Origin: an uncultured virus (IMG/VR IMGVR_UViG_3300027828_000003)
Lineage: Duplodnaviria > Heunggongvirae > Uroviricota > Caudoviricetes
Length of the DNA stretch: 64,000 bases
Reading direction: 5' to 3' (one strand)
IMG/VR virus record: IMGVR_UViG_3300027828_000003
The notes under the pieces are model-generated. The model was given only the letters and a program-made list of their open reading frames with translations, ran no database searches and was not told the origin of the DNA. The position numbers and the translations under genes were made by a program. Shown here piece by piece: positions 42,345 to 56,214 of the stretch. The first letter of the stretch is position 1. Every line of letters begins with the position of its first letter.

Positions 42345-42923
42345 ATGTCTGAAAAACTTAAAATCGCCACCGTTGGCATCGGCAGCATAATCGCAAACCC
42401 CAAGAATGCTCGATCTCATCCGGATGAGCAGATTCAACACTTGGTCGCGAGCATCAAACGGTTCGGTCAACCGCGTCCGATCCTCGTCCGTAAAGAAAAC
42501 AAGATGATTGTCGGTGGTCACGGCATCTTTACGGCCTGTAAACTTGCCGGCCTCGAGCATGTCTCCGCCATTCTATGGGACGTCGATCAAGCGACGGCGG
42601 ATGCCTACATGCTCGCCGACAACCGGCTCGGCGATCTGTCGACCGATGACGAAGATCGAGTGGCCGCCCTTCTCCGCGAAATCAACGCAGACGACTATTT
42701 CGCGATCGGTTTCGACGACACTGAGGTGTCTCGGCTTCTGGATGAACTGGAAGAAGACGCGATCGAAGTCGAGGAACTTTCCGCAGACTTGGTTTCGGAT
42801 AGCTTCTGGATCACCATCAGAGGGCCGCTCGCGAACCAAGCCGCGGCACTCGACCGATTGAAGGCCGCGATGGTGGACCTCGAAGATGTCGACGTGGAGC
42901 TCGGCACGACGCCGGGAATGTAG
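42345..42923 (+). CDS. ParB/Srx N-terminal domain protein
   Basis: NPKNARSH..QI..L..SI..FG..PI, I.GHG, Y..ADNR. Confidence 0.85.
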   Translation: MSEKLKIATVGIGSIIANPKNARSHPDEQIQHLVASIKRFGQPRPILVRKENKMIVGGHGIFTACKLAGLEHVSAILWDVDQATADAYMLADNRLGDLSTDDEDRVAALLREINADDYFAIGFDDTEVSRLLDELEEDAIEVEELSADLVSDSFWITIRGPLANQAAALDRLKAAMVDLEDVDVELGTTPGM

Positions 42924-42925
42924 GG

Positions 42926-43558
42926 ATGAAGAAACTGAACCGATTTTCGTCGACTCTGAATAAGAATAAGAAAAAGGCCAACAACCACCCTGCAGCCGAG
43001 AAGGCCAAGGCACAGATCCGCCAGAACGTCCTGGACGTTATCGGCGCCGACGATGCTTCCGTCTTCGACGCTTTCGCCGGCGAGGGCGTCATGCATACCG
43101 CGGTCTGGCATGCCGCAAAGAGCTATATCGGCTGCGATCTGGTCTGGTACCGAGACACGCGAACCGCCTTCGTCTGCGACAACACCCGCGTCTTGCGAGC
43201 GGTCGACCTTCAGCAGTTCAACATCTTCGATTTCGATGCTTACGGGTCGCCATGGGAACAGGCGTTCATCCTCGCTTCGAGGCGTGAGGTCAAACCGGGC
43301 GAACGCATCGGTCTGATTCTCACAGAGGGAAGCGGACTCAATCTGAAGCTGGGGGGATTGCCGATCGCCCTCCGCAAGCTGGCTGGCGTGCGGAAGACCT
43401 TCGCCGGGGGGAACCGGCATCATGACGACCTGATCGACATGGCATTGGCCGGCGTGTGCCGGCGCATGAACGTCAAGATCGTGAAGCGGTGGCGGGCGGT
43501 CCGCAAAGGCGGCGCTGCCATGCGCTATATCGGCGTTGTGTTGGAAGGAATCTCCTGA
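42926..43558 (+). CDS. SAM-dependent methyltransferase-like protein
   Basis: VFDAFAGEG motif I; FDFDAYGSPW. Confidence 0.55.
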   Translation: MKKLNRFSSTLNKNKKKANNHPAAEKAKAQIRQNVLDVIGADDASVFDAFAGEGVMHTAVWHAAKSYIGCDLVWYRDTRTAFVCDNTRVLRAVDLQQFNIFDFDAYGSPWEQAFILASRREVKPGERIGLILTEGSGLNLKLGGLPIALRKLAGVRKTFAGGNRHHDDLIDMALAGVCRRMNVKIVKRWRAVRKGGAAMRYIGVVLEGIS

Positions 43559-43624
43559 GCCGCAGGCGCCGCCCAGATCGAAACCTGGACGGCTCCCCTG
43601 CAACGGAGATCTGACTTGGCGGCT

Positions 43625-43683
43625 GCCTCATCAGGCCACGGGTACCACCCGTGACGACCAGCCCGAAAAGGGCTGGTTTCGGC
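43625..43683 (-). ncRNA. Hammerhead ribozyme, type II; predicted cleavage 3' of C at 43656
   Basis: GCC-GAAA-CCAGCCC UUUUC GGGCUGG-UC-GUCACGGG UGGUA CCCGUGGC-CUGAUGA-GGC. Confidence 0.8.
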
Positions 43684-43702
43684 TTGTTCCGGCCGATGCC
43701 GG

Positions 43703-43885
43703 TCAGTCCTGGCTCATCCTGGCCTTGAATGACCGGATGGTCATGGTTTCGACTTCACCTTTCGGGTCCGTCGGATAGAACTCACCGTGGATGCAGTCTT
43801 TCGCGAAAGCCACGGCTTCCGAACGTGTACAGGGTTTGTCCGTCTTGAGGACGATGCAGATTTCATGGCGTCTGCTTTTGGCCAT
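43703..43885 (-). CDS. Hypothetical protein
   Basis: AAGGAG RBS; last gene of leftward operon. Confidence 0.5.
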   Translation of the reverse strand: MAKSRRHEICIVLKTDKPCTRSEAVAFAKDCIHGEFYPTDPKGEVETMTIRSFKARMSQD

Positions 43886-44129
43886 GGGTTTCTCCTTTCT
43901 CGCTGAAGAGCGGTAAATCCAGACCCTGTCTCTCCGAAGGCAGCGGCCGCTCATCCGGACGGCAGATATTCCAGGGACATTCCTTGAAGTGCCCTTCGTC
44001 GTAAGCCTGCAAAATCCGGGGTTTGTGGTAGGTGCATTCGTGGCCGGACGGCCGCCGGCAGTGACTACCGACTTTCGCTTTGCACTCCGAACACGGGACT
44101 TCCAACGCGGGATGGCGCCGCCAAGTCAT
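43863..44129 (-). CDS. Zn-finger domain protein
   Basis: AL.V.C..C.A..G..C.RPSG...H..R. Confidence 0.55.
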   Translation of the reverse strand: MTWRRHPALEVPCSECKAKVGSHCRRPSGHECTYHKPRILQAYDEGHFKECPWNICRPDERPLPSERQGLDLPLFSEKGETHGQKQTP

Positions 44130-44155
44130 GCCGCACCCTTTGTTGCACCCGACCG

Positions 44156-44575
44156 TCATAACAGACCGATCCGGTTGTCGGGCCCGGTCCATTCCATCAA
44201 GGCAACGCCCTTCAGGAATTCATGGTCCACGATGTCCGACTCCAACACCGACTTGGCGCGGTGCAGAGCCTGATGGTCGATATCGCCGCCGCGGCGGGCG
44301 ACAATCTCGATCATCATTCCATCGTAGTCGTCGGAGAACCGGAACACGCCCGGCCAACAGTCGAAGTGGATGTCCGGCGTTGCGCCGGCGCCGCCCCAGT
44401 TCTCCCAATCTCCATCGGGATTCTTGATGAGGTCCGGATAGCCGTACATGCCATGCGGCGCCAACCGGTCCTTGACCCAGAGCCATGCCGCATGTTGCCG
44501 TTCACGCAGCTTCGCCTCGATCAAATCCGGATGGGATTGGCTCCCGACTTCCGTATCAAACAGACTTTGCTGCAT
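44156..44575 (-). CDS. Hypothetical protein
   Basis: GGAGG RBS before ATG. Confidence 0.5.
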   Translation of the reverse strand: MQQSLFDTEVGSQSHPDLIEAKLRERQHAAWLWVKDRLAPHGMYGYPDLIKNPDGDWENWGGAGATPDIHFDCWPGVFRFSDDYDGMMIEIVARRGGDIDHQALHRAKSVLESDIVDHEFLKGVALMEWTGPDNRIGLL

Positions 44576-44891
44576 GGCTGCCTCCCATTGGTCGATGGTC
44601 GAAAAGCGGCAGGCCATCCCCCAATTCGGGTTTGGTCTCGTAACGCCGGATTCCTTCCTCGGTCACATAGTAATCACCGGCCGGGCCTGGTCCTTTCAGG
44701 CTGCCGTTTCCCATCAGGACTTCGAAAGCCGCATAAATGCGCGTCCTCTTCCAGCCATAGGGATCGGCACCCGGCCGTCCACCCATCTGGTGTTGAATGG
44801 CGAACATAGACATGGCGCCTATACCAGACGGGCTCCACCGACGGATACGCGCAAAAAGCACGGCATCGTCCGGTTTCTTTTCGTCTTTCAT
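44556..44891 (-). CDS. Hypothetical protein
   Basis: Starts after shared CUGCAACAUGGAGG motif. Confidence 0.55.
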   Translation of the reverse strand: MKDEKKPDDAVLFARIRRWSPSGIGAMSMFAIQHQMGGRPGADPYGWKRTRIYAAFEVLMGNGSLKGPGPAGDYYVTEEGIRRYETKPELGDGLPLFDHRPMGGSHAAKSV

Positions 44892-44917
44892 TTCTACCTC
44901 CATGTTGCAGTGTGGTT

Positions 44918-44979
44918 TCCCACTACCGACCCCGCAGGGCCGGTTTCGACCAGTCACCAACTGGTCTCGTCAGGCAGGA
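44918..44979 (-). ncRNA. Hammerhead ribozyme, type I (GUA triplet, cleavage after 44924)
   Basis: UCCUGC-CUGACGA-GACCAG UUGGUGA CUGGUC-GAAA-CCGGCCC UGCG GGGUCGG-UA-GUGGGA. Confidence 0.9.
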
Positions 44980-47048
44980 TTTCTTGATTGGCTTACCGAT
45001 AGCGCGGTGGCGATCGGCTGCACCCAGATCGGTTCGTTCGACAGCGAAAAGGTCTGTCCGCTCCATGCCATCAGCAAGGTGCGTCCCATGGTCGAGGCGA
45101 TGGCCTGCGCTGCGGGCGGCGGGACCGCGTTTCCGATCCGTTCCCGCCATGCCGAGTCCGAAAGCCCCTCGAGCTCCATATGCTCTTCGGGACAAACGAG
45201 CCCTTGTAAAGCGGCCAACTCCAAGGTCGTGAACGGGCGATGCCACGTATTGTCGAGGGAGTGGATCACCACCACCAACCGGTCTTCCGGCGCCGGCAGT
45301 TGACAAATCGGGTCGATATTCGGATCCGGTTGCACACGCGGGTCCGCAACCGACCATCGCCCGTTGTCATGCTGAGCCGCCGCCGAGACCGCGCCGGCCG
45401 AGTCCCACCACGGGACAACACCGTAGTGCCCGCCCGATTGGTAGTGTTCCCGGCCGTCCTTGGTGAATTCAGGCCGGGGATCGGCAACGGAGAAGGCCCC
45501 GTTCCCGGTTCCGCTGGCCCCGATGACGGTGCCTGCCTGTCCATCCCAGTCGACGACACGATACTTGCCTTTCCCCTGGTAGGACGAATCCGGCCGCGGA
45601 TCGGCCACGCTCAACGCACCGGATGCAACCTGTTGGGCGCCAGTGATGGTGTAGGCCGGGTCTCCCCAGTCCGTGACCTTCAACTTGGCGCTCGATGCAC
45701 CTGGATGCCAATTGTTGTAGCGAGGATCGGCCACCGAGAACTTTCCGTTCGTCGGGAAGCTTTCCCCCGCGACAGTACCGGCCTGCTCGTTCCAGTCCGT
45801 GACGCCCATATGGCCATTGAAATGACCGCCACGGGGATCGGCCACGGACATTGCGGCGCCACCGACATGCTTCGCGCCGGTGACGACATGGGCGCTCCGG
45901 TCCCATCGCACGACACGATAGAACCCGTTGTGCCGGTTCTTCGATGGAGGCATGCGCGGATCGGCCACCGAATGGGGCCCACCACCGACCAACATCTTGC
46001 CGGTGACGACACCCGTCGATTGATCCCATTTCCGAACGCCATGCTGAACCGATCGAGGATGACCGTCGATGCGCGGGTCCGCCACGCTGTAACAGCCGTT
46101 CGTCGGCGTGCTGCGACCCTTCACCGTCACCGCCGGGCTGCCCCATGGAGTGACCCCCATGACGCCCTGGTGATAGCTTTGGTCGGGCATGATCCCGAAA
46201 TCCTTGAGAAAGCCGTCTTCAACATTCAGACGTTTCAAGGATCGCCAATCGCTACCGGCCTCGATGAAGGCCAGCCGAACCCAGGTTTTCCATTGAAGCG
46301 ACGGGATGCGATGCATGGGCCCCGCGGCCGCGACATCGCCGGGCAACGGGAAGCGTTCCAAGACCTCCCCTACCCCTTTCAAAGGCCTATGCATAGGCTC
46401 ATAGAGGAAGGGCGGAATCTTCTCCGCGTGCCGTGCCACGAGCAGGAAACGCTTCCGGCTCTGGGCCAAGCCGCCGAGATGGCCGCAATCGTGCGTCGTC
46501 TCCGCGACCAGATAGCCGTAATGCGCCAGGAGCGCGACAATCCGGTCGAGAAGCTTCCGACCGCGGTTCATGATGCGGGGAACGTTCTCAAACACGATCA
46601 GTTCCGGCGGATCATCCTGCCAGGCCTCGAGCATGAGCCAGACCCCGCGAAGGGTAAGGCTGTTCAACGCCTGATACTTGTCGCCCTTGCTGGCCGCTTC
46701 GGGCAACAAGCCCGAGAAGCCTTTGCAGGGAGCGGACAGGAACACGATATGCGGACGTTCGCCGCCCGCCGCGCGCTGGATGTCTGCCGCCGTGGCTTCG
46801 GTCCACCCATAAGGCGGCTCCTTGCCATGAAACGCCATGTACTGCTGGCGATTGAACAGGTCCAAGACCGTTCCTTTCACGCCGGCCAGCTGATCGAAAT
46901 CAGCAATGGCGCCTTGGTCGACATCGATTCCACCGATGCATTTGAACTTCGCGTTCAGGCTACCAACGCGGGCTTCGCCTTTGTTGAAGCCTTTCGCGCC
47001 GCCACCCAATCCGCAGAATAGGTGGAAGTGCCTAATCTCTACATCCAT
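44970..47048 (-). CDS. DNA (cytosine-5) methyltransferase with internal repeats
   Basis: HLFCGLGG, APCKGFS, ENV, Q.R.R, IGNAVP; seven SVADPR repeats; start moved to ATG after shared RBS. Confidence 0.9.
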   Translation of the reverse strand: MDVEIRHFHLFCGLGGGAKGFNKGEARVGSLNAKFKCIGGIDVDQGAIADFDQLAGVKGTVLDLFNRQQYMAFHGKEPPYGWTEATAADIQRAAGGERPHIVFLSAPCKGFSGLLPEAASKGDKYQALNSLTLRGVWLMLEAWQDDPPELIVFENVPRIMNRGRKLLDRIVALLAHYGYLVAETTHDCGHLGGLAQSRKRFLLVARHAEKIPPFLYEPMHRPLKGVGEVLERFPLPGDVAAAGPMHRIPSLQWKTWVRLAFIEAGSDWRSLKRLNVEDGFLKDFGIMPDQSYHQGVMGVTPWGSPAVTVKGRSTPTNGCYSVADPRIDGHPRSVQHGVRKWDQSTGVVTGKMLVGGGPHSVADPRMPPSKNRHNGFYRVVRWDRSAHVVTGAKHVGGAAMSVADPRGGHFNGHMGVTDWNEQAGTVAGESFPTNGKFSVADPRYNNWHPGASSAKLKVTDWGDPAYTITGAQQVASGALSVADPRPDSSYQGKGKYRVVDWDGQAGTVIGASGTGNGAFSVADPRPEFTKDGREHYQSGGHYGVVPWWDSAGAVSAAAQHDNGRWSVADPRVQPDPNIDPICQLPAPEDRLVVVIHSLDNTWHRPFTTLELAALQGLVCPEEHMELEGLSDSAWRERIGNAVPPPAAQAIASTMGRTLLMAWSGQTFSLSNEPIWVQPIATALSVSQSRNPA

Positions 47049-47081
47049 AACAGTTTCTCCTTGTTGCAGTTTGCGGGACAT

Positions 47082-47143
47082 CCCGCGACCGGGCGCCGAA
47101 GCACCCGGTTTCGGCTGTGTGTCAAACAGCCTCATCAGGCGGG
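47082..47143 (-). ncRNA. Hammerhead ribozyme, type I (GUC, cleavage after 47087)
   Basis: CCCGC-CUGAUGA-GGCUGU UUGACAC ACAGCC-GAAA-CCGGGUGC UUCG GCGCCCGG-UC-GCGGG. Confidence 0.92.
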
Positions 47144-47183
47144 TAATGAGTTTTACTCATTCTCACAGGTAAAAAAACACCGA

Positions 47184-48659
47184 TCATCTGTATGGAAAGG
47201 ATTTGTCCTTGTTCAGGCAGACGATCACCGTGTTGACGTTCGTGCCAACAGGCAGAAACGAGCCCGGCGGGAGATCATCCATCCGGGCCTTGTATTCATC
47301 CAGCAGCTTCCGGAAGGCCACGCTCTTCTTCGTCATCCTGAATTCCGTTCCGGCGCTCATGATCGAGATCAGATAGCCGTTCGGATTCAGGAATTTCATC
47401 GCGTGCAAGACGTGGTCAATGTCCCGTTCGAGGTCGAACGGTGGATTCATCACGACCCGGTCGTAGATCGGCTTTGGCTCGACATCCAGGAAATCACCGC
47501 AAGTCACCTTGCGGAACTTCCCGGATGCATCGAGTTCGGCCGCCAAATCTGTCTGGATTTCGACACAATCGACAACACCGCCATTCTCGACCGCTCTATA
47601 GGCCAAGCTGCCGTTACCGGCGGACGGTTCTAGAACGAGCAAAGGTCTTCGGTCTTCAGTAGGACGCCAAATCTTCGCTTGCCTCATGACGATCTCCGCG
47701 GCGTCCTCCGGCGTCGGGTAGAAGCCCCACCCTTTCGCCGGCGTGCGCTTGACCTTGAAGAGGCTGTCTTCCTCTTCCGCGGCCTTGCGGTACTTTTCGC
47801 TGCGCTCTTCGGGAATCACGTCGCCGTAGTATTCCGCCAAGAGCTTGTTGACCCGTTCAACCAGGTCGTCGCGCTGGAACCAGACGTGACAGTTTCCGTT
47901 CTTGAAAATACGGATCTTGAAATACTCTGAATCGACTTCGGTTTGACGGGGTGAAAGAGAATGACCGTCATTCCTTCGCGCTGTCTCTATGGCGTTTAGG
48001 AGTTGGCTATAAGCCGGGTTGTCCCGTTCGTCGTCGAGAACACGAAAAGTTCGCTCGATGTCGATCAGCGTGTCACGCATGTTGCTGTAATGGTTCCAAG
48101 TGCCCCACTCATCGAAACACCGGTCCAGGATCACACGGTTGCCGATTTTCCAACCGTCGTGGCTTCTGAACCGTCGATCCAGCTTGGAAAAGCAAGTGGC
48201 GATTCCGCGCTTGAAGATCGTGTCACGGTCCAGGAACAGCTGCTCTATGGTGGCAATGACGTTTTCTTCAGTGATGTCGGGTGGATCATCCACCAACTGC
48301 CTCCGAAGATCGTCCTTCGCCGTTTTGTCCATCAGCTGCTCAAGAGCCGTGATTTCGATGATCCTGGACCAGCAGTCGGAGTCGACCGCGCGCCGAACCG
48401 TCGTTTCAAAGAATTCACGCGACGGAACATTGAAGTCCGTCAGGTGGCATTTCTGAAGATGTTTCGACGAACCGTAATTGAAGCCGGTCGTGCCGGCCGC
48501 CATACGGGTTTTGGTCTTGTGCGCTTCATCGATCGCCTGCCGAGCCGATTCCAAGGCGTCATAGGCGCAACCGTAGAGACGGAGCGCCTCGTCCCTGTAC
48601 CGGACCAGTTCGGCGACAGTGATGCGAAGTGCTGGAAGTTGACCGTCAGGCATGACCAT
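47184..48659 (-). CDS. DUF4942 domain + amino-methyltransferase
   Basis: YF..R.FKNGN.H..F.R.DLV...N; FYPTP, LEPSAG.G, MNPPF. Confidence 0.85.
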   Translation of the reverse strand: MVMPDGQLPALRITVAELVRYRDEALRLYGCAYDALESARQAIDEAHKTKTRMAAGTTGFNYGSSKHLQKCHLTDFNVPSREFFETTVRRAVDSDCWSRIIEITALEQLMDKTAKDDLRRQLVDDPPDITEENVIATIEQLFLDRDTIFKRGIATCFSKLDRRFRSHDGWKIGNRVILDRCFDEWGTWNHYSNMRDTLIDIERTFRVLDDERDNPAYSQLLNAIETARRNDGHSLSPRQTEVDSEYFKIRIFKNGNCHVWFQRDDLVERVNKLLAEYYGDVIPEERSEKYRKAAEEEDSLFKVKRTPAKGWGFYPTPEDAAEIVMRQAKIWRPTEDRRPLLVLEPSAGNGSLAYRAVENGGVVDCVEIQTDLAAELDASGKFRKVTCGDFLDVEPKPIYDRVVMNPPFDLERDIDHVLHAMKFLNPNGYLISIMSAGTEFRMTKKSVAFRKLLDEYKARMDDLPPGSFLPVGTNVNTVIVCLNKDKSFPYR

Positions 48660-48727
48660 GGCCCCCTTCCCGCTTTTTCAAGTGTTTCATCGTAGTTCTC
48701 CATGTTGCAGTTGTGGGGTAGTGACTT

Positions 48728-48785
48728 CCCACGACCGCCCCAAAAGGGCGGTTTCGGCCCGTGTCACGGGGCCTCGTCAGGTGGG
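48728..48785 (-). ncRNA. Hammerhead ribozyme, type I (GUC, cleavage after 48733)
   Basis: CCCAC-CUGACGA-GGCCC CGUGACAC GGGCC-GAAA-CCGCCC UUUUG GGGCGG-UC-GUGGG. Confidence 0.92.
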
Positions 48786-49454
48786 TTTGAGATCGAACGG
48801 TGGCGGCGTTTGGGAGATTTTGTGAATCCAGCCGCCGGGTTGCCAGTCCGGATCGTCTTTTGGCGCTTCCGGCATGATCAACTCCGCTTCCTCGCCGGAA
48901 TGCCTCTTGTACCCGAGCGGGACAGTTCCGTCTTTTCGGTCAAGCTGGATCGTCTTCACGACCTGATCGACCAGACCTGTCTTCTCGGCAAATGATCCGA
49001 AGAAATTCGCATAGGAGCGATAACCGGTCGGCGATATGAAAGGACGGTCGAAGTCGACCGCATGGGCGCTGAACCCCAAACCGAACAAACCCCGATAGTC
49101 GATCAACACACGGCATTCGAGGACATTCACAATGAACCGTCCCGGCTGACCGAACATTGGCACTTCGCCGCCACTGGATTGAATGGCGTCGATAATGCGA
49201 CCGTAGGCACCTTCCTTCGTGGCGATTGCGAAAATGGTGCCGTCATTCATGCGAACAGCCAGGTTTCGAACCTGTTCCAAGATCGCCACACCGGTCTCGC
49301 CGTCCCCATTGAGGACCGCTTGATCGTAACGGACAAGTTCGTCCCAGATCGCGGCGATCAGGTCGTCCTCATCCGTCGGTAGAGCGTCCAAGGCAGCGCG
49401 TTGCGCCCGTTCTGCGTCAGTGGGAAGGTCCATTCCCAAAGCAAGCTGTGTCAT
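48777..49454 (-). CDS. KlcB-like protein
   Basis: GEVPMFGQ.G.F..., HAVDFDRPFIS.TGYRS resembles IncP KlcB (recognised by eye). Confidence 0.6.
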   Translation of the reverse strand: MTQLALGMDLPTDAERAQRAALDALPTDEDDLIAAIWDELVRYDQAVLNGDGETGVAILEQVRNLAVRMNDGTIFAIATKEGAYGRIIDAIQSSGGEVPMFGQPGRFIVNVLECRVLIDYRGLFGLGFSAHAVDFDRPFISPTGYRSYANFFGSFAEKTGLVDQVVKTIQLDRKDGTVPLGYKRHSGEEAELIMPEAPKDDPDWQPGGWIHKISQTPPPFDLKPT

Positions 49455-49488
49455 ATTGGTCTCCGTGTTGCAGTTACGGTATCGGCTA

Positions 49489-49558
49489 CCGCGACGGCCA
49501 ACTTAACGCATGACGTTAAGTTGACCGTTTCGGCCCCGCCACGGGCCTCGTCAGGCGG
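49489..49558 (-). ncRNA. Hammerhead ribozyme, type I (GUC, cleavage after 49493)
   Basis: CCGC-CUGACGA-GGCCC GUGGCG GGGCC-GAAA-long stem III-UC-GCGG. Confidence 0.92.
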
Positions 49559-50369
49559 ATCCATGGTGTTGCGGAACCCGAAGCGGATTCGGGTATCCTT
49601 CCGGCAGGAACGGCTGAAGGTCTTTCTTGATGTAGTGCCGTGCCCCAAGCTCCTGCAGGAGCTCGATCATCCGGTGGGTATAGTCTTCCCAGTCGGTCGT
49701 TTTCGTCATGGACAGGTAGTTCACCCGCCCGACCTTGTAGAGATCGACGAATTCATGGGTTTCGCGAACGATTTCCATGCTGCTTTCGACATCCAGGGTC
49801 GGCTCGAGGCTGACCCAGGTGAAGATGCCGGCCGCATGAAAGGCCTTGATCGCTTCAATCCGATCTGCCGGCGCCGCGGCGTCGCGTTCCCATTTCCGGG
49901 AAAATCCTTCGTCGAGGCTGGTCAGTGTCGAGGCAAAAGCATCACGATCGCGTCGAAACAGGTCGATATCCCGCAACGCCCTGGTTCCACCCTTGGTCAA
50001 GGTGCAGAAGCCCAGACCATGATCCCGCAGGACGATCAGGGTTTCCCGGGTCAGCGAATTGTCGCCCGGGTGATACGGATCGGTCGTGAACGAGAGCATG
50101 ACCTGGCCCGTCAATCCGGCCGCCCTGTACTTCTTGGCGTCCTTGACGAGGTTGGCCATGTAGTTCTTGCGCGGCACCGCGCCGGCATCGAACTCTTTCC
50201 GGTCCTGCTTGGTGACGCGCGGCACATAGCAATAGGCGCATTTGTGCCCGCAGCCGCGATATGGGTTTGCGGCCAGTGGCGCATATTCTCCGGCCTGACC
50301 TTTCGGCGCGTAGATATGCGTGCATCCCTTCAGCGAAAGGCCATCGGGATTGATTGTTGGTGTATGCAT
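49551..50369 (-). CDS. Radical SAM protein (SPL-like)
   Basis: NPYRGCGHKCAYCY CxxxCxxC; TDPY; LTK; WVSLEP. Confidence 0.85.
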   Translation of the reverse strand: MHTPTINPDGLSLKGCTHIYAPKGQAGEYAPLAANPYRGCGHKCAYCYVPRVTKQDRKEFDAGAVPRKNYMANLVKDAKKYRAAGLTGQVMLSFTTDPYHPGDNSLTRETLIVLRDHGLGFCTLTKGGTRALRDIDLFRRDRDAFASTLTSLDEGFSRKWERDAAAPADRIEAIKAFHAAGIFTWVSLEPTLDVESSMEIVRETHEFVDLYKVGRVNYLSMTKTTDWEDYTHRMIELLQELGARHYIKKDLQPFLPEGYPNPLRVPQHHGSA

Positions 50370-50390
50370 TCAAATTCTCCATGTTGCACG

Positions 50391-50419
50391 ATAGTATGAG
50401 TTTAACTCATTATTGCGAA
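50391..50419 (-). promoter_or_regulatory. Putative promoter with operator ATGAGTTTAACTCAT (50396-50410)
   Basis: TTCGCA-N17-TACTAT on minus strand. Confidence 0.5.
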
Positions 50420-50637
50420 GATGCCAAAACATATGTAACTGCCTGCATCTTCACGATTTTCTTGGATAAACGATATGTCTACTTATAGCCCTATTGAATA
50501 CCTATTTAGAGAGCCTTCCTATTGACTATTCGGGCGACTTCCCCAATTAAGAAACATCCATGTTGCAGTGGATTTCACCGACCTTGATCGGTGCATCTAC
50601 ACCCGAGCCGGATCACTCCGCGCTCGGGTGTTGTGCA

Positions 50638-50943
50638 TCAGGACATCAGGTTGTCGAAATAGGCCTTCGCCGACTCGTAGTCGCGATATTGCCGACCGTG
50701 CTGCGCGCCACCCATTTCGAAGTGGACCGCATAATGGCCGTTCGTCCATCGCATCATCGAGCCGGCAGCATGCCAACCGGCAGTCACGGCCTTCAACTGA
50801 ACCTCTCGGCCGCCGAGCGCCTTTCTGGTTTCCAAAACGGTGATCTCCGGCCGCGGTTCAAGCCTGCTATTCGGCTCTTCAAGCAAGCACTTCCCTGCCG
50901 GGATGTACTTATCTCGAAAATGGACATTCGGGATTTCAAGCAT
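50638..50943 (-). CDS. Hypothetical protein
   Basis: Starts after shared RBS motif. Confidence 0.6.
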   Translation of the reverse strand: MLEIPNVHFRDKYIPAGKCLLEEPNSRLEPRPEITVLETRKALGGREVQLKAVTAGWHAAGSMMRWTNGHYAVHFEMGGAQHGRQYRDYESAKAYFDNLMS

Positions 50944-50969
50944 ATCGGTTCTCCATGTTGCAGTTGCGG

Positions 50970-51035
50970 TTTCCCACGACCGACCCCGCAGGGCCGGTTT
51001 CGGCCAGTCACCAACTGGCCTCGTCAGGCAGGAAA
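50970..51035 (-). ncRNA. Hammerhead ribozyme, type I (GUC, cleavage after 50978)
   Basis: UUUCCUGC-CUGACGA-GGCCAG UUGGUGA CUGGCC-GAAA-CCGGCCC UGCG GGGUCGG-UC-GUGGGAAA. Confidence 0.92.
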
Positions 51036-51452
51036 GTAGTCACAGGCGATCTGCTCGTCGGTGATCTCGAGTTCGAAGGTCGAACCCGGTTTGAGCTTTT
51101 CGGGCAGTTCGTCCAAATGGAAGACTTCGACGAAATCGTCGCCGCCGACCGCATCCCGGCTCCGTTCCCAGAACCCTGGATCATCAGGCGAATATCCGAG
51201 CGCGTAGACGACCTTCTTCTTGCCCGGCCGGTCCGGATCGAGCATGGCCGGGAAGCCATTCGATACCAAGTAGATGCCGTCGTCTTTGACGATCAACAAA
51301 CCCGGCTGTCCCAGTTTTTCCTCGCCGTCCTGGGGATCAATACTCCCGGTCAGGTCGAGACGTTCGCCGAAAGTCAGGCTATGTTCGTTCGAAGCGCGTG
51401 CATGCACCATCAACAAATTGACCGAGTCGGCAGGGAAACGAAGTTTCGTCAT
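51024..51452 (-). CDS. DUF3085-like protein
   Basis: L.VKDDGIYL.SNG, VYA.G..P, GGDDFVE. Confidence 0.7.
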   Translation of the reverse strand: MTKLRFPADSVNLLMVHARASNEHSLTFGERLDLTGSIDPQDGEEKLGQPGLLIVKDDGIYLVSNGFPAMLDPDRPGKKKVVYALGYSPDDPGFWERSRDAVGGDDFVEVFHLDELPEKLKPGSTFELEITDEQIACDYFPA

Positions 51453-51958
51453 TTCCTGTCCTCCTCGATCGACTGTTGGACGCCCGGCAGACGATAGATG
51501 TTCTCCGGATCCGTGTCCGACGCGTTGAAGTAGTCGATCTGCGCCTTGACCTCTTTGATGTCATCAGCCTCGTCCTCCTGCCACCGATAGCTATACCGGC
51601 GTTCCGTATCACCCTTCTCGGGCGGCACGAGGTAGACCGAAAATCCACCATACTTGAAGGCTTCGACCTCGCCGGCCGGCCGCCGCATGCTCGACATCAC
51701 GATCTCCGCGGCGCGTTTTTGACCGATCAGGAGAATGTCCCGGTTCAGTTCGTCCGCGTGCTGCGCCATCTCGTCGTAGCTATCGCCGTTGCACCAGAAC
51801 ACCGGTACAGGGTGGTAACCTGGCTCGTTCTCGACAGCGATACCGAGGCCGAACCCTTCAGATTTGGCAACCACTGGGACAAACGCCCAGTTCTTGCCGT
51901 CGACGACCGTAAAAAGGTCACATTCGGCCATGCCTTCCGTTGTCAATTGTTTCAGCAT
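51449..51958 (-). CDS. Hypothetical protein
   Basis: Starts after shared RBS motif; GIAVENEPGY. Confidence 0.6.
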   Translation of the reverse strand: MLKQLTTEGMAECDLFTVVDGKNWAFVPVVAKSEGFGLGIAVENEPGYHPVPVFWCNGDSYDEMAQHADELNRDILLIGQKRAAEIVMSSMRRPAGEVEAFKYGGFSVYLVPPEKGDTERRYSYRWQEDEADDIKEVKAQIDYFNASDTDPENIYRLPGVQQSIEEDRK

Positions 51959-51993
51959 TTCAGCTTCTCCATGTTGCAGTTACGGTAATGCAT

Positions 51994-52064
51994 ACCGCGA
52001 CCATCACCCCCGGCTGGCGCCGGGGGCTAGGTTTCGCCGGGATTGCACCGGCTCGTCAGGCGGC
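51994..52064 (-). ncRNA. Hammerhead ribozyme, type I (GUC, cleavage after 51999)
   Basis: GCCGC-CUGACGA-GCCGG UGCAAUC CCGGC-GAAA-CC..GCCCCCGGC GCCA GCCGGGGGU..GG-UC-GCGGU. Confidence 0.9.
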
Positions 52065-52469
52065 TTCTGCTTCTTCGGGCTGATGACCCTGCATGATGAT
52101 GTTCTGCAGCCATTGGGCCAGGAAATCGTTCTGGCCCTTCTTTTCCTTCGGATAGACCTTGCCCGGTTCGGGGTAGACCTCCCGGAAGGAGCTCAGGTAG
52201 TCCTGCTGAATGTGAAGGGCTTCCGCCATCTTCAGCTTCGGGACGACCGCGACCAGCATTTCGGGATCCGCCATGAGATCGCCGTTTTGCAGCCCATAGT
52301 GCGCCAGGGAGACCTTGACCCGGTCCTTCTCGCGCTCGACGACCTCGACGCACAGATCCATGAATCCGGACGCCTTCAACTTGGTGTGGAAGCCGACCTC
52401 ACGGTCCTCGATCCCCGGAATGATTTTCGTCAAACGGGCGTAGATCGTCTTGTAGATTTTGTGTTCCAT
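52056..52469 (-). CDS. DUF1249/DUF6908-like protein
   Basis: GFMDL.VE, SLAHY..QNGDLMADPEM, FL..WL.NI..QG. Confidence 0.7.
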   Translation of the reverse strand: MEHKIYKTIYARLTKIIPGIEDREVGFHTKLKASGFMDLCVEVVEREKDRVKVSLAHYGLQNGDLMADPEMLVAVVPKLKMAEALHIQQDYLSSFREVYPEPGKVYPKEKKGQNDFLAQWLQNIIMQGHQPEEAEAA

Positions 52470-52505
52470 CTCGAAATTCTCCATGTTGCAGTTACGGTAT
52501 TGGCT

Positions 52506-52562
52506 ACCGCGACCGGTCCCGAAGAACCGGTTTCGGCCCCGCCACGGGCCTCGTCAGGCGGC
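52506..52562 (-). ncRNA. Hammerhead ribozyme, type I (GUC, cleavage after 52511)
   Basis: GCCGC-CUGACGA-GGCCC GUGGCG GGGCC-GAAA-CCGGUUC UUCG GGACCGG-UC-GCGGU. Confidence 0.93.
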
Positions 52563-53027
52563 GTTCAATTCGCGATTGACGCGCGATCTGAAATCAATAA
52601 GAGCGGGCGCATATGCCTCGTGATAGTGCCCATGGTACCGGCCACCATCCTCGAGGTTCTGCCACCATGTCGCGTAGGGATGGCGCACGTTGTCGATGCA
52701 GCAGAGCAGAAAACGACCGGGGGCCGTCATTTGACCGTCTGGTGACGGGTGTTCCGCTACAATGAAGCCGGTCGACCCGGCGCCCTTGACCCCCTCGATA
52801 ATCGAGCCAGGGAACACGTATTTCGTCCGCTCCTGGATTTGAGCTTCGGAAACGCTGCCGACCTTTTCGAAGTCAATGCCCTTGTGGATGCACCACAGTT
52901 CGGCGATTTCCTCGACTTGGGTCTGATTTTCGCCCTCGATGTGCTTATGCAGCCAATTCGTGAAGCCGACCCCTGGCCCGCCGTGAACGGTCTCGGCCAG
53001 CTTGATCGACGCAAAATAGATCGTCAT
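52554..53027 (-). CDS. Hypothetical protein
   Basis: Starts after shared RBS; HPYATW....G...GHY. Confidence 0.6.
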   Translation of the reverse strand: MTIYFASIKLAETVHGGPGVGFTNWLHKHIEGENQTQVEEIAELWCIHKGIDFEKVGSVSEAQIQERTKYVFPGSIIEGVKGAGSTGFIVAEHPSPDGQMTAPGRFLLCCIDNVRHPYATWWQNLEDGGRYHGHYHEAYAPALIDFRSRVNRELNAA

Positions 53028-53058
53028 TAGATTCTCCCATGTTGCAGTTTGCGGACAT

Positions 53059-53127
53059 ACCGCGACCAGCCGTCGCACAACTTGCGACAACTGGTTTCGC
53101 CGGGATTGCACCGGCTCATCAGGCGGC
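53059..53127 (-). ncRNA. Hammerhead ribozyme, type I (GUC, cleavage after 53064)
   Basis: GCCGC-CUGAUGA-GCCGG UGCAAUC CCGGC-GAAA-CCAGUUGUCGCA AGUUG UGCGACGGCUGG-UC-GCGGU. Confidence 0.92.
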
Positions 53128-53601
53128 TTGATTGACCTGGCGCGGGTCGTTCCAGACCTGGGCGCCGGCGTCGACGTAAAGGCCGACGTAATGGTCAAGG
53201 GGACAGTGAGAAAACCCGTTGTAGGGTGGTGCGTCGGGTGTCACGCCTGTGATGAAAGACGGGCCGGAAATGACCAGATCGATCAGCTTTTCATGCGGTA
53301 TTTGACGCATATCGACCACAGGGACACCTAGACCTTTCAGAATGCTGGCGTAGGGCTCGCCCTCGCCATATCCTTCCAGTCGGCATCCTGAAACGCGCGT
53401 ATTGGCGTCTTCATAGTGGACTGTCCAGCCACCGTGGCCGATGGTCATCAAGACCGCCCGACGGATGGTCGCCAAACTCGACTTGATCGAAAAACGCTCC
53501 TTTGTCCGCGCCTCGATGTGTTTTCCGTTTTCCCGCAATTCCATGTGATACCACCAAGTTTTGGCATGGTGATTCAACTTTTTGTAAATGACGGTTCTCA
53601 T
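53119..53601 (-). CDS. Hypothetical protein
   Basis: Starts after shared RBS motif. Confidence 0.6.
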   Translation of the reverse strand: MRTVIYKKLNHHAKTWWYHMELRENGKHIEARTKERFSIKSSLATIRRAVLMTIGHGGWTVHYEDANTRVSGCRLEGYGEGEPYASILKGLGVPVVDMRQIPHEKLIDLVISGPSFITGVTPDAPPYNGFSHCPLDHYVGLYVDAGAQVWNDPRQVNQAA

Positions 53602-53646
53602 CGTGGACTCCGTGTTGCAGATGGCGAAATTGCCTAACGAATTCAG

Positions 53647-53687
53647 GAGAAAAGGCCGGGGGCGAGCGATGAATAAGCCCGCCCCCG
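53647..53687 (-). terminator. Putative intrinsic terminator after clamp-like gene
   Basis: CGGGGGCGGGC UUAUUCAUC GCUCGCCCCCG then GCCUUUUCUC. Confidence 0.5.
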
Positions 53688-53707: not shown

Positions 53708-54943
53708 TTAAGCGGCGATTGCTTCCGCCTGTTCGGCCGCCTTGGCTGCCTTACGGCCCCGATTGTTCCGGCCTTTGGTGGCCTTGGGGGCCTTCGTGGT
53801 CTCGGCCTTGGCAGCTGCCGGCGCCGTTTCGGGCTCCGGCTTGGCTTCCGGTTCCGCCTTGGGCTCGGGTTGCGGTTCCTGTTCCGGTTCCGCCGGTTCC
53901 GTGGTTTCTGGTTCGGACGTTTCCGGCTCCGTGGTTTCGGGTTCCGTTTCCGTCGTTTCCTCGCCAAGTTCCATCCCGAGCGGCTGCCCGTCGATCGCCT
54001 CGTCGCCACCCTGTTCGGGCGCGGGCAAGGCTTTCTCGCTCGTGCGAGCCATCAAGGCTTCAATCCGTTCCCGGTATTCGTCGGCCTTCGCGGAAAGCTT
54101 GGCCTTCTCAAGCGGGTCCGTCGTTTCGTCCGCCCATGCCTGATTGCGCGTTTGATGCGCCTTCAGAGCGGCGAGCGTCCGATTGACGGCCGGACTGATA
54201 AGACGTGCCGTCTCCGGCGCGATGCTTTGCTTGACCCTGACGGGCATCAGAATAAGCATCGCCCCCGGATATTCCGGAAACGTCGCCATGGCCGCTTCCG
54301 TCGCGGAATGGGCGTACAGGCTCACGTTTCCGTCCTTCCCGCCCAAGAGCTTCGCGATATCGCCAACGGATTTGAGATATTTTCCGTTGAACGACACCGG
54401 TTCGAAGTCCTTAGCGCGGGCGTCGTCTTTGTCCGTCACCCCGCCGGTCAGACTTTCCATGATCATTTGGTAATCAGGAAACGTGCCGGACACGATCGGG
54501 CACTTGATGCGCGCGTCTTGCTTGGCGTCCGTGAGGTACGCGCTCGACGCGTTCACCGCGTTCTCGATCTTGATCAGCTCATCCTCGCCGAGCTTCTGCA
54601 AAAGCTTCAGCTTGGGAGCGAGATTTTCGCTGTGCAGGATCGCGCCTTGTTCCAGCCATGCCGGGGCTTGCCCGACAAGCGGCTGAGTGGCGATGAACAA
54701 ACGGTGACCATCCGTGGCCACGGCCCGGATCCTGTCCTCGACGACATGGAAAAAGATTCCGTTGAGATAGTAGCGGGTCTCTTCCGTGCTGGCGCACGCC
54801 AAAGCGGCATGCATCAGGGTCGCCGGAAACAGGATCGATTCGGAGGCTCCGACCTCGACGGCCTGGGCGTTGTCGTCCTGGCGCGCGTTGTTCTCGGCTT
54901 CCGTGGTCTGTTCCGTGGTGGTGACGTGGTTTTGGTCAGTCAT
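53708..54943 (-). CDS. DNA polymerase III beta-clamp-like protein with acidic/Pro-rich tail
   Basis: EETRYYLNGI, AVATDGHRL, GTFPDY, FNGKYL, LMPVR. Confidence 0.75.
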   Translation of the reverse strand: MTDQNHVTTTEQTTEAENNARQDDNAQAVEVGASESILFPATLMHAALACASTEETRYYLNGIFFHVVEDRIRAVATDGHRLFIATQPLVGQAPAWLEQGAILHSENLAPKLKLLQKLGEDELIKIENAVNASSAYLTDAKQDARIKCPIVSGTFPDYQMIMESLTGGVTDKDDARAKDFEPVSFNGKYLKSVGDIAKLLGGKDGNVSLYAHSATEAAMATFPEYPGAMLILMPVRVKQSIAPETARLISPAVNRTLAALKAHQTRNQAWADETTDPLEKAKLSAKADEYRERIEALMARTSEKALPAPEQGGDEAIDGQPLGMELGEETTETEPETTEPETSEPETTEPAEPEQEPQPEPKAEPEAKPEPETAPAAAKAETTKAPKATKGRNNRGRKAAKAAEQAEAIAA

Positions 54944-54965
54944 TGGATTTTCTCCGTGTTGCAGT

Positions 54966-55335: not shown

Positions 55336-55339
55336 CGAT

Positions 55340-55373
55340 ATGAGATAGTCTCATATTATGGGGTATAGTTCAA
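55340..55373 (-). promoter_or_regulatory. Promoter for the ribozyme-punctuated operon with overlapping operator
   Basis: TTGAAC-N17-(TGn)GACTAT; ATGAGATAGTCTCAT at 55340-55354. Confidence 0.6.
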
Positions 55374-55530: not shown

Positions 55531-55801
55531 GGCAGGGAGAGAGAGCCGTAGGGGCTGGGCTGGGTGTAGGGACAGGGAGAGAGAGCCGTAGGGGCTGGGC
55601 CGGGTGTAGGGACAGGGAGAGAAGGCCGTAGGGGCTGGGCTGGGTGTAGGGACAGGGAGAGAGAGCCGTAGGGGCTGGGCTGGGTGTAGGGACAGGGAGA
55701 GAGAGCCGTAGGGGCTGGGCCGGGTGTAGGGACAGGGAGAGAGAGCCGTAGGGGCTGGGCCGGGTGTAGGGACAGGGAGAGAAGGCCGTAGGGGCTGGGC
55801 T
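55531..55801. repeat. Tandem array of 40-bp G-rich unit, about 6.8 copies
   Basis: GACAGGGAGAGA(GA/AG)GCCGTAGGGGCTGGGC(T/C)GGGTGTAGG at 40-nt period. Confidence 0.97.
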
Positions 55802-55835
55802 GATGGTGCCCGATGTGTTGGGGCTTGAGGTAGGG

Positions 55836-55869
55836 CAAAAGAAAAGGGCCCGCGCAGCGGCGGGCCCTT
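55836..55869 (-). terminator. Intrinsic terminator
   Basis: AAGGGCCCGC..GCGGGCCC UUUUCUUUUG. Confidence 0.8.
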
Positions 55870-55892: not shown

Positions 55893-56129
55893 TTAGGCGG
55901 CGGCTTCCAGGGTGCCCCCGGTCTCGAGCGTTTCAAGTTTCGCATAGAGCGGATTCAATTGCTTGGTCACAAGGCCCTTATCGTAGCCGGTCAAGGCGTC
56001 GCGGGTGCGTTCCAGCCGGGTGATGCGGGCCTTGGTGGCGGCGATCTGGTGGCCGATGGTGCCCTTGGTGGCGGCCGCCTTGGCGCCGGCGTTCAAACGG
56101 GTCTGGCTGTCGATGTTCACGTTACGCAT
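55893..56129 (-). CDS. Small hypothetical protein (early)
   Basis: Own promoter, shared RBS motif and terminator. Confidence 0.65.
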   Translation of the reverse strand: MRNVNIDSQTRLNAGAKAAATKGTIGHQIAATKARITRLERTRDALTGYDKGLVTKQLNPLYAKLETLETGGTLEAAA

Positions 56130-56185
56130 GGTTCAATCTCCTGTTGCAGTGTCCGGCGGGGACCGTCCCCGTCGTCGATGGTTAG

Positions 56186-56214
56186 AATATAGGGTGTGAT
56201 ATGAATTTTGTCAA
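56186..56214 (-). promoter_or_regulatory. Near-consensus sigma70 promoter
   Basis: TTGACA-N17-TATATT. Confidence 0.75.

Follow-up and report, generated by a model that had tools for sequence, protein, structure and literature searches.

Nine hammerhead ribozymes at the gene junctions of an operon in an uncultured phage

In phage T7, RNase III sites between the early genes cut the long early transcript into gene-sized mRNAs that end in stabilising hairpins. Cutting by a hammerhead ribozyme gives 5'-hydroxyl (5'-OH) and 2',3'-cyclic-phosphate ends. Multiple hammerheads flanking single genes were described in prophages by Perreault et al. in 2011 (PMC3088659), who proposed a role in transcript processing. 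The prophage examples include a triple arrangement around ardA in Agrobacterium tumefaciens as well as Clostridium scindens and Azorhizobium caulinodans. Prophage transcripts with two and three ribozymes cleave in vitro, that of A. tumefaciens also in vivo in E. coli, and spliced or circular products are reported as sought and not found (PMC3088659). In the haloviruses HF1 and HF2 a hammerhead lies 13 nucleotides (nt) upstream of the helicase start codon, and a 5' end was mapped within three nt of the cut (PMC3088659). RiboJ, a hammerhead plus hairpin in front of a ribosome-binding site (RBS), raises expression (PMC6206723). A 2019 review repeats the processing idea and calls the biology of bacterial ribozymes largely elusive (PMC6765202). 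Here we analyse a stretch of 64,000 nt from an uncultured virus (IMG/VR record IMGVR_UViG_3300027828_000003), in the following called the window, in which nine hammerheads punctuate a single operon.

For detection we used a flexible descriptor that covers all three hammerhead topologies and requires CUGANGA, GAAA, an A15.1-U16.1 pair, a non-G nucleotide H17 and three stems. In the whole window it matched exactly nine times, each time a complete hammerhead on the minus strand; eight of these are type I and one is type II. An earlier reading of this DNA, the first-pass annotation, had claimed nine full-core hammerheads on this strand with a type II copy at 43625; all its starts and predicted cut sites coincide with ours, and its distinction of a single type II copy is borne out by the descriptor and, for the type II copy, by Rfam. 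The copies are given below in the direction of the operon, with scores in bits from our type I covariance model; open reading frame is abbreviated ORF and amino acids aa.

53059-53127, minus strand: HH9, type I, cut after 53064; core CUGAUGA, whose UGA is the stop codon of a 160-aa gene; 45.6 bits
52506-52562, minus strand: HH8, type I, cut after 52511; core UGA is the stop codon of a 157-aa gene; UUCG loop on stem III; 70.3 bits
51994-52064, minus strand: HH7, type I, cut after 51999; internal loop in stem III; core UGA is the stop codon of the DUF6908 gene; 39 bits
50970-51035, minus strand: HH6, type I, cut after 50978; core UGA is the stop codon of the DUF3085 gene; near-identical to HH2; 75.6 bits
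49489-49558, minus strand: HH5, type I, cut after 49493; the radical SAM gene ends with the core UGA; stem III long, stem II the same as in HH8; 45.4 bits
48728-48785, minus strand: HH4, type I, cut after 48733; core UGA is the stop codon of a 225-aa gene; 77 bits
47082-47143, minus strand: HH3, type I, cut after 47087; UUCG loop on stem III; the sole type I copy whose upstream gene ends earlier (47184); 69.8 bits
44918-44979, minus strand: HH2, type I, cut after 44924; H17 is A; the C5 methyltransferase gene ends with the core UGA; 72.4 bits
43625-43683 (descriptor) or 43617-43684 (Rfam), minus strand: HH1, type II, cut after 43656; upstream of a 302-codon ORF at 42695-43603

The core (C3 U4 G5 A6 N7 G8 A9 and G12 A13 A14) is intact in all nine copies. 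Each copy also has the A15.1-U16.1 pair and, at the cut site behind it, a non-G H17, which is C in eight copies and A in HH2, and according to the descriptor three helices join at every core with the core-adjacent pairs 1.1-2.1 and 10.1-11.1. The Rfam model Hammerhead_II scored 52.6 bits on HH1, compared to a gathering score of 37. A strict descriptor, disallowing internal loops, recovered seven of the eight type I copies and gave no match across 200 second-order Markov randomisations of the window. The plus strand of the window yielded zero hammerheads with either descriptor.

The covariance model for type I was seeded with eight copies, five from the window and three from a related element (L005, see below). 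All eight window copies were recovered, the three non-seed ones at 39-46 bits, as were five copies in the relative, two of them non-seed; no other window sequence scored above 17 bits. Upon alignment of these 13 copies 95.9% of the cells pair, with compensatory changes in 10 of 17 pairs (37 cells), and the covariation score was reached by none of 500 shuffles. When the partners were slid by 1-3 columns, pairing fell to 22-50%. The core-adjacent pairs of stem I (columns 8/91) and stem II (columns 16/36) are invariant. Fitting the alignment to the covariance model favours the structure; the margin is nevertheless large. The earlier statements that stem sequences vary while pairing is kept and that stable loops such as UUCG occur both agree with these data: UUCG loops cap stem III in the copies at 47082 and 52506, and UGCG loops do so at 44918 and 50970. 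The nine elements are genuine hammerhead motifs and, judged from their sequence, probably active.

Three sub-threshold Rfam matches were dropped as mis-typed partial matches: Twister-sister (23.6 bits, threshold 34), which overlaps a true hammerhead, Hammerhead_3 on HH9 (22.4 bits, threshold 48.5) and Hammerhead_II on HH4 (20.3 bits). In three DNA runs that contain the window, all labelled marine sediment metagenome, its sequence is identical and free of variants. The assembly contigs of all three runs break at 49529-49556 and 52530-52561. These sites are the near-identical stretch of stem I, core and stem II common to HH5 and HH8, so that ribozyme repeats fragment assemblies.

What is added here over known arrays is a recurring module of stop codon, ribozyme, hairpin and leader. 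In seven of the eight type I copies of the window the UGA within CUGANGA is the stop codon of the upstream gene; in several of the genes that stop in the core, Pfam domains reach nearly to the protein end. All eight copies are followed by a leader, ACUGCAACA(N)GGAG, then, after 5-9 nt, by the AUG with which the next ORF begins. This Shine-Dalgarno (SD)-like GGAG with its AUG behind each type I copy agrees with the first-pass expectation of an own RBS per mRNA. The first 4-6 nt of the downstream product are the 3' strand of stem I and can pair with a nearby downstream copy of the stem I 5' strand; a 5'-terminal hairpin is predicted in all 13 downstream products of the window and the relative. 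The leader is more conserved than the ribozyme stems. Allowing up to two mismatches, it has 12 minus-strand copies between 44.9 and 55.0 kilobases (kb), and the opposite strand holds only one match, with two mismatches; a thirteenth copy has three mismatches. Within three mismatches 38 matches were observed, compared to 14.6 ± 4.2 in shuffles. Five leader copies are ribozyme-free, and a predicted promoter and/or hairpin precedes them.

44892-44923, minus strand: 5' module of the downstream product, here after HH2, with the hairpin from the stem I 3' strand, leader ACUGCAACAUGGAG at 44898-44911 and AUG at 44891
47057-47070, 48698-48711, 49461-49474, 50951-50964, 51967-51980, 52479-52492 and 53035-53048, minus strand: leaders after the other type I copies
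54952-54965, minus strand: ribozyme-free leader before the first large gene, hairpin upstream
53608-53621, 50377-50390, 50556-50569 (degenerate, no ORF) and 56137-56150 (the thirteenth copy), minus strand: further ribozyme-free leaders

At 50377-50569 the degenerate leader (GGAU for GGAG), which has no ORF behind it, is followed by an AT-rich spacer, a promoter-like site, a ribozyme-free leader and the radical SAM gene. The arrangement looks like the scar of a lost cassette.

As in the prophage clusters of Perreault et al. (PMC3088659), type I and type II ribozymes in one orientation lie between single genes or short blocks in a phage or prophage context, the genes between them vary and have to do with DNA modification or anti-restriction, and the proposed role is cutting into single-gene or operon-length mRNAs. 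The window has nine copies in 9.5 kb, co-oriented with the genes, compared to two or three in the constructs tested in that paper, a comparison that concerns these constructs and not its largest cluster. The fixed unit of stop codon in the core, 5' hairpin and leader is unmentioned in the excerpts of the paper, the term "stop codon" occurring zero times in its main text, and our literature search, of partial coverage, returned no description of it. The hammerhead of HF1 and HF2 resembles the window copies in lying just before the start of an early gene in a polycistronic transcript; unlike the array it is a single variant ribozyme in an archaeal virus (PMC3088659).

We consider it probable that the operon RNA is cut independently of the host into gene-sized units with protected, standardised ends. 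Each ribozyme would fold and cut itself during transcription of the operon, such that the long RNA would be divided into units of one to four genes with no need of a host RNase. A few dozen bases past its stop codon the upstream unit would terminate in stems II and III, both stable hairpins, and carry a 2',3'-cyclic phosphate. The downstream unit would begin with a 5'-hydroxyl and carry the hairpin from the released stem I strand, the leader CUGCAACAUGGAG, 5-9 bases and the AUG. With hairpin and leader on each downstream unit, an internal gene would therefore have the same 5' end as promoter-proximal genes. The sequence analysis shows the motifs, their covariation, their position at gene ends, the common leader and their conservation in relatives; we infer the cleavage itself, a continuous transcript and the effects on stability and translation. 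The first-pass annotation had expected mostly single-gene mRNAs, which applies to five of the eight inter-ribozyme segments; of the others, two hold two genes and one holds four.

While T7 depends on a host enzyme, the RNA of the window would cut itself and leave 5'-OH and cyclic-phosphate ends. The unit would work as a natural counterpart of the RiboJ insulator: in both, the hairpin after the hammerhead remains, or would remain, at the 5' end of the downstream mRNA and provides a uniform 5' end whatever lies upstream (PMC6206723). RiboJ is an engineered derivative of the sTRSV ribozyme that stands behind promoters, whereas in the window the units lie between natural genes and the hairpin would be formed with the stem I strand of the ribozyme itself. 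The resemblance is one of function and not of family membership.

The ends produced by cutting, 5'-OH and 2',3'-cyclic phosphate, are those that ligation needs, and Perreault et al. raised this possibility (PMC3088659). An RtcB-type ligase or the reverse reaction of the ribozyme could in this case join the flanked segments into circular or spliced RNAs. The excerpts of that paper report no ligated products, and the 5' hairpin on the downstream product would sequester the ligation end, such that we regard this outcome as very improbable.

To find relatives, a pattern of the ribozyme 3' half joined to the leader was searched in a metagenome collection. It yielded one independent element, represented by L005 and L004, which are identical over 8.4 kb. 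This element is a diverged, largely syntenic operon with proteins 29-76% identical to those of the window (radical SAM 76%, clamp-like 52%, DUF3085 41%, g9 38%, DUF6908 33%, g16 31%, DUF4942 methyltransferase 29%; the genes are listed below). L005 carries five type I hammerheads and one of type II (Rfam, 42.3 bits), the latter directly before the g16 homolog as is HH1 in the window. Of its type I units one has the stop codon in the core and three have it 0-2 nt before stem I; the hairpin, a possible pairing of loop II (see below) and a leader, GCAACAUGGAG, recur as well. A descriptor match of "type II" at 9021-8971 of L005 was rejected because of weak stems and no Rfam support.

That the nine motifs arose by chance or are dead relics with no present function deserves next to no weight. 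None of the randomisations matched, all copies lie on one strand at gene junctions, covariation is strong, and the design is kept in a relative whose proteins are only 29-76% identical.

The comparison with L005 also bears on a different role, in which the ribozyme-leader units are mainly recombination junctions where single-gene cassettes are gained, lost and swapped between phages, RNA cutting being secondary. Ribozyme positions before DUF6908 and after radical SAM are common to both operons and those at rearranged cassettes differ, the gene order changing at ribozyme-bounded cassettes. Each operon has, at a different position, a C5 methyltransferase gene with ribozymes at either end, and these two enzymes are not closely homologous. 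Within the window, HH2/HH6, HH5/HH8 and HH7/HH9 are three pairs with near-identical ribozyme parts, stems II and III being recombined. The set of flanked genes varies in the prophage clusters as well (PMC3088659). However, the shared stretches are short, and the strictly conserved catalytic nucleotides together with the compensatory stem changes show that the RNA fold, and not DNA homology alone, is under selection. We consider a mainly recombinational role unlikely.

A generic type I pattern run against viral contigs matched at least 78 loci. As the pattern was modelled on the window ribozymes, these loci are not an unbiased phage sample. Among the 78 matches listed, 16 loci carry no hammerhead, 41 carry one, 9 two, 2 three, 3 four, 3 five, 1 six, 2 eight and 1 nine. 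After merging loci with identical units, three or more hammerheads are present in at least nine distinct elements, not counting the window and L005. Examples are the following.

L213: eight type I hammerheads in 3.4 kb
L220/L221: eight type I and one type II in 8.2 kb
L184/L160/L205: six hammerheads
L189: five hammerheads

The closest relative of the window among the matches listed is L189 (clamp-like protein 48%, DUF6908 52% and radical SAM 75% identical), in which a type II hammerhead precedes the radical SAM gene. The other arrays keep the unit design, with a stop codon just before or inside stem I and core, a hairpin after the cut and an array-wide leader: CUGCAAUGGAG in L221 and L184, UCUGCAA..GGAG in L189 and a different one, CCAGAAGGAGC, in L213. 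The matches listed contain 99 unique type I units. For 88 of these, an ORF with 50 codons or more stops between -15 and +6 relative to the core, 36 times via the core UGA; such an ORF end was found for 186 of 1,980 random positions and for 81 of 272 CUGANGA sites outside ribozymes. The downstream product begins with a hairpin in 77 units, and in 68 an SD-like site with a start codon opening at least 40 codons is found within 90 nt.

The first-pass annotation knew of no described system of this density and regularity. This does not hold in view of the arrays of Perreault et al. (PMC3088659) and of the comparably dense viral contigs; the search for the layout in other phage contigs, which it had suggested, found it in L005/L004, L189, L213, L220/L221 and others. 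The array of the window is a clear, dense example of the layout described in 2011 and not a novel system.

Other searches gave negative results. Cultured phages contained no near-identity DNA match to the operon, and with the descriptor the cultured phages 16-3, AmM-1, Psul1 and RR1-A (four of 20 clamp-like matches) had no hammerhead. A distant search with one ribozyme-leader unit found no match, and viral-contig scans with the DUF4942 protein, two exact ribozyme patterns and a ribozyme-plus-leader pattern returned zero matches each. Scanning genome contigs with the C5 methyltransferase gave one locus (L002), which is free of hammerheads. The type I model had no match in the genome G001 or in 151 genomes of its class, a result that shows little as about 34 candidates were scored per genome. 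A single type II hammerhead just upstream of a clamp-like gene was seen in L073 at 1435-1504 (Rfam, 37.9 bits) and, with the descriptor only, in L072 at 4248-4306 and L106 at 9104-9202. On the minus strand of L003 a weak type I model match with a much expanded stem II (2469-2560, 19.6 bits, E 0.008) may be a variant hammerhead or due to chance.

Several results weigh against the reading that the operon RNA is self-cut into protected gene-sized units. The check with Rfam models proposed in the first-pass annotation, successful for HH1, failed for the type I copies: none attains the gathering score of any Rfam hammerhead model, and a permissive scan gave only the two wrong-type matches on HH9 and HH4 mentioned above. 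The type I calls therefore rest on our own descriptor and covariance model. Among viral loci with radical SAM genes 61-78% identical to that of the window, 0 of 50 had a ribozyme by descriptor and model, ten of them also being clean in Rfam. Among 80 loci with distant clamp-like genes the descriptor found a single type II copy in four, one of which passes Rfam. Homologous genes alone are thus no predictor of ribozymes. The RNA may not be one continuous polycistron, as the operon contains a terminator-like hairpin after g1 and, ahead of the radical SAM gene, a promoter-like site. Pairing of loop II by at least 4 base pairs (bp) is missing in two of the 13 units. Finally, nearest-neighbour energies for transcripts ending just past stem I place the active fold at the minimum in only seven of the 13 units, and in 11 of them the downstream hairpin displaces the active fold at 24-28 nt past the cut site. 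With these competing folds, how efficiently the units cut is uncertain; tertiary contacts or kinetics may matter. The modelled energetics would fit an order of events in which the RNA is first cut and then trapped.

As a candidate tertiary contact between stems I and II, loop II can pair over 4-6 bp with the 3' flank (the hairpin loop) in 11 of 13 units, compared to 89 of 156 swapped partners. In permutations 257 of 20,000 arrangements were as good, so that this position-restricted test provides modest support; it was used instead of a wide-flank version that did not distinguish own from swapped partners. The pairing is consistent with the pseudoknots reported for hammerheads of all three types (PMC3088659).

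The competing folds would also suit ribozymes that are conditional switches instead of constitutive cutters, with cleavage set by ribosome traffic or by a leader-bound factor that tunes each cassette. The upstream gene runs with its last codons and stop into stem I and the core: the stop lies inside the core in 7/8 window copies and in or next to it in 88/99 units among the matches listed. The competing hairpin is present in 13/13 units and thermodynamically winning in 11/13, and the leader is better conserved than the stems. The overlap with the stop codon is, however, simply explicable by genome compaction, a ligand or protein site was not identified, and the published clustered examples cleave efficiently in plain in vitro transcription (PMC3088659). 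We hold conditional switching to be rather unlikely and retain self-cutting into standardised units as the preferred reading.

A more far-reaching reading, tentative and rather improbable, is that the unit is a portable, standardised cassette junction of a phage operon family whose leader is bound by a common translational regulator that switches all cut mRNAs on or off jointly. Ribozyme and hairpin would insulate the cassettes and protect their ends, and the leader stands at ribozyme-free junctions as well. The putative regulator could be phage-encoded or be a host GGA-binding protein such as one of the CsrA/RsmA family, which binds GGA motifs. If true, cassette junction and leader regulator would constitute a two-layer, RNA-encoded control of accessory phage genes. 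The operon and its relatives provide a clean, repeated natural design in which a ribozyme joins the end of one gene to the standard 5' hairpin and leader of the next. This design turns the vague notion of "mRNA processing" into specific questions about end protection, insulation of translation from the upstream context and leader binding. Its units are ready natural insulator parts for synthetic biology; knowledge of the hammerhead ribozyme itself is unchanged.

The operon that contains the ribozymes spans about 12 kb on the minus strand, which is also the strand of its Pfam-supported genes. These are listed here together with the remaining ORFs.

53708-54943, minus strand: g1, 411-aa sliding-clamp-like protein with a DNA_pol3_beta_2 domain
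53119-53601, minus strand: g2, 160 aa, no family
52554-53027, minus strand: g3, 157 aa, no family, between HH9 and HH8
52056-52469, minus strand: g4, 137 aa, DUF6908/DUF1249
51449-51958, minus strand: g5, 169 aa, overlaps g6
51024-51452, minus strand: g6, DUF3085, overlaps g5
50638-50943, minus strand: g7, 101 aa
Between g7 and g8, minus strand: AT-rich spacer with a promoter-like site at 50399-50427
49551-50369, minus strand: g8, radical SAM protein
48777-49454, minus strand: g9, 225 aa, no family
48646-48690, minus strand: 14-codon upstream ORF opened by the leader after HH4, overlaps the g10 start
47184-48659, minus strand: g10, DUF4942 plus methyltransferase protein
44970-47048, minus strand: g11, 692-aa C5 cytosine DNA methyltransferase
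44556-44891, 44156-44617, 43863-44192 and 43703-43954, minus strand: g12-g15, four small ORFs between HH2 and HH1, starts approximate
42695-43603, minus strand: g16, the 302-codon ORF after the type II ribozyme, start uncertain

In its gene content the operon looks like a DNA-modification or anti-restriction module, and from this content only it would be classed as early. The window as a whole represents a temperate siphovirus-like phage with a tape-measure C-terminus, tail proteins L and J, integrase, SSB and SNF2 helicase; it also encodes two tRNAs, Dam, a portal protein and a Mu F-like protein. Taken one by one, proteins of the window have their best annotated relatives in a Rhizobium phage and in alphaproteobacterial plasmids (37-52% identity), and an alphaproteobacterial host is therefore likely.

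The stop of the short ORF at 48646-48690 overlaps the start region of g10, which could reflect translational coupling or an assembly frameshift. Directly after g1 a GC-rich hairpin with a U-rich run (53648-53686) resembles a terminator or attenuator and could limit read-through into the array. Upstream of the first operon gene, a roughly 400-base non-coding stretch contains a perfect, operator-like 19-base palindrome (55338-55356) beside promoter-like hexamers. Between the operon start and a strong minus-strand terminator (55844-55869) lies a tandem repeat at 55533-55802 with a 40-base unit, 6.8 copies and 95% identity, which could represent origin iterons or a regulatory array. A separate small transcription unit at 55893-56214 comprises a promoter-like site (56186-56214, 11/12 matches), the leader at 56137-56150, a 78-aa ORF (55893-56129) and a terminator. 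A homolog of this ORF, 59% identical, adjoins the array in L189.

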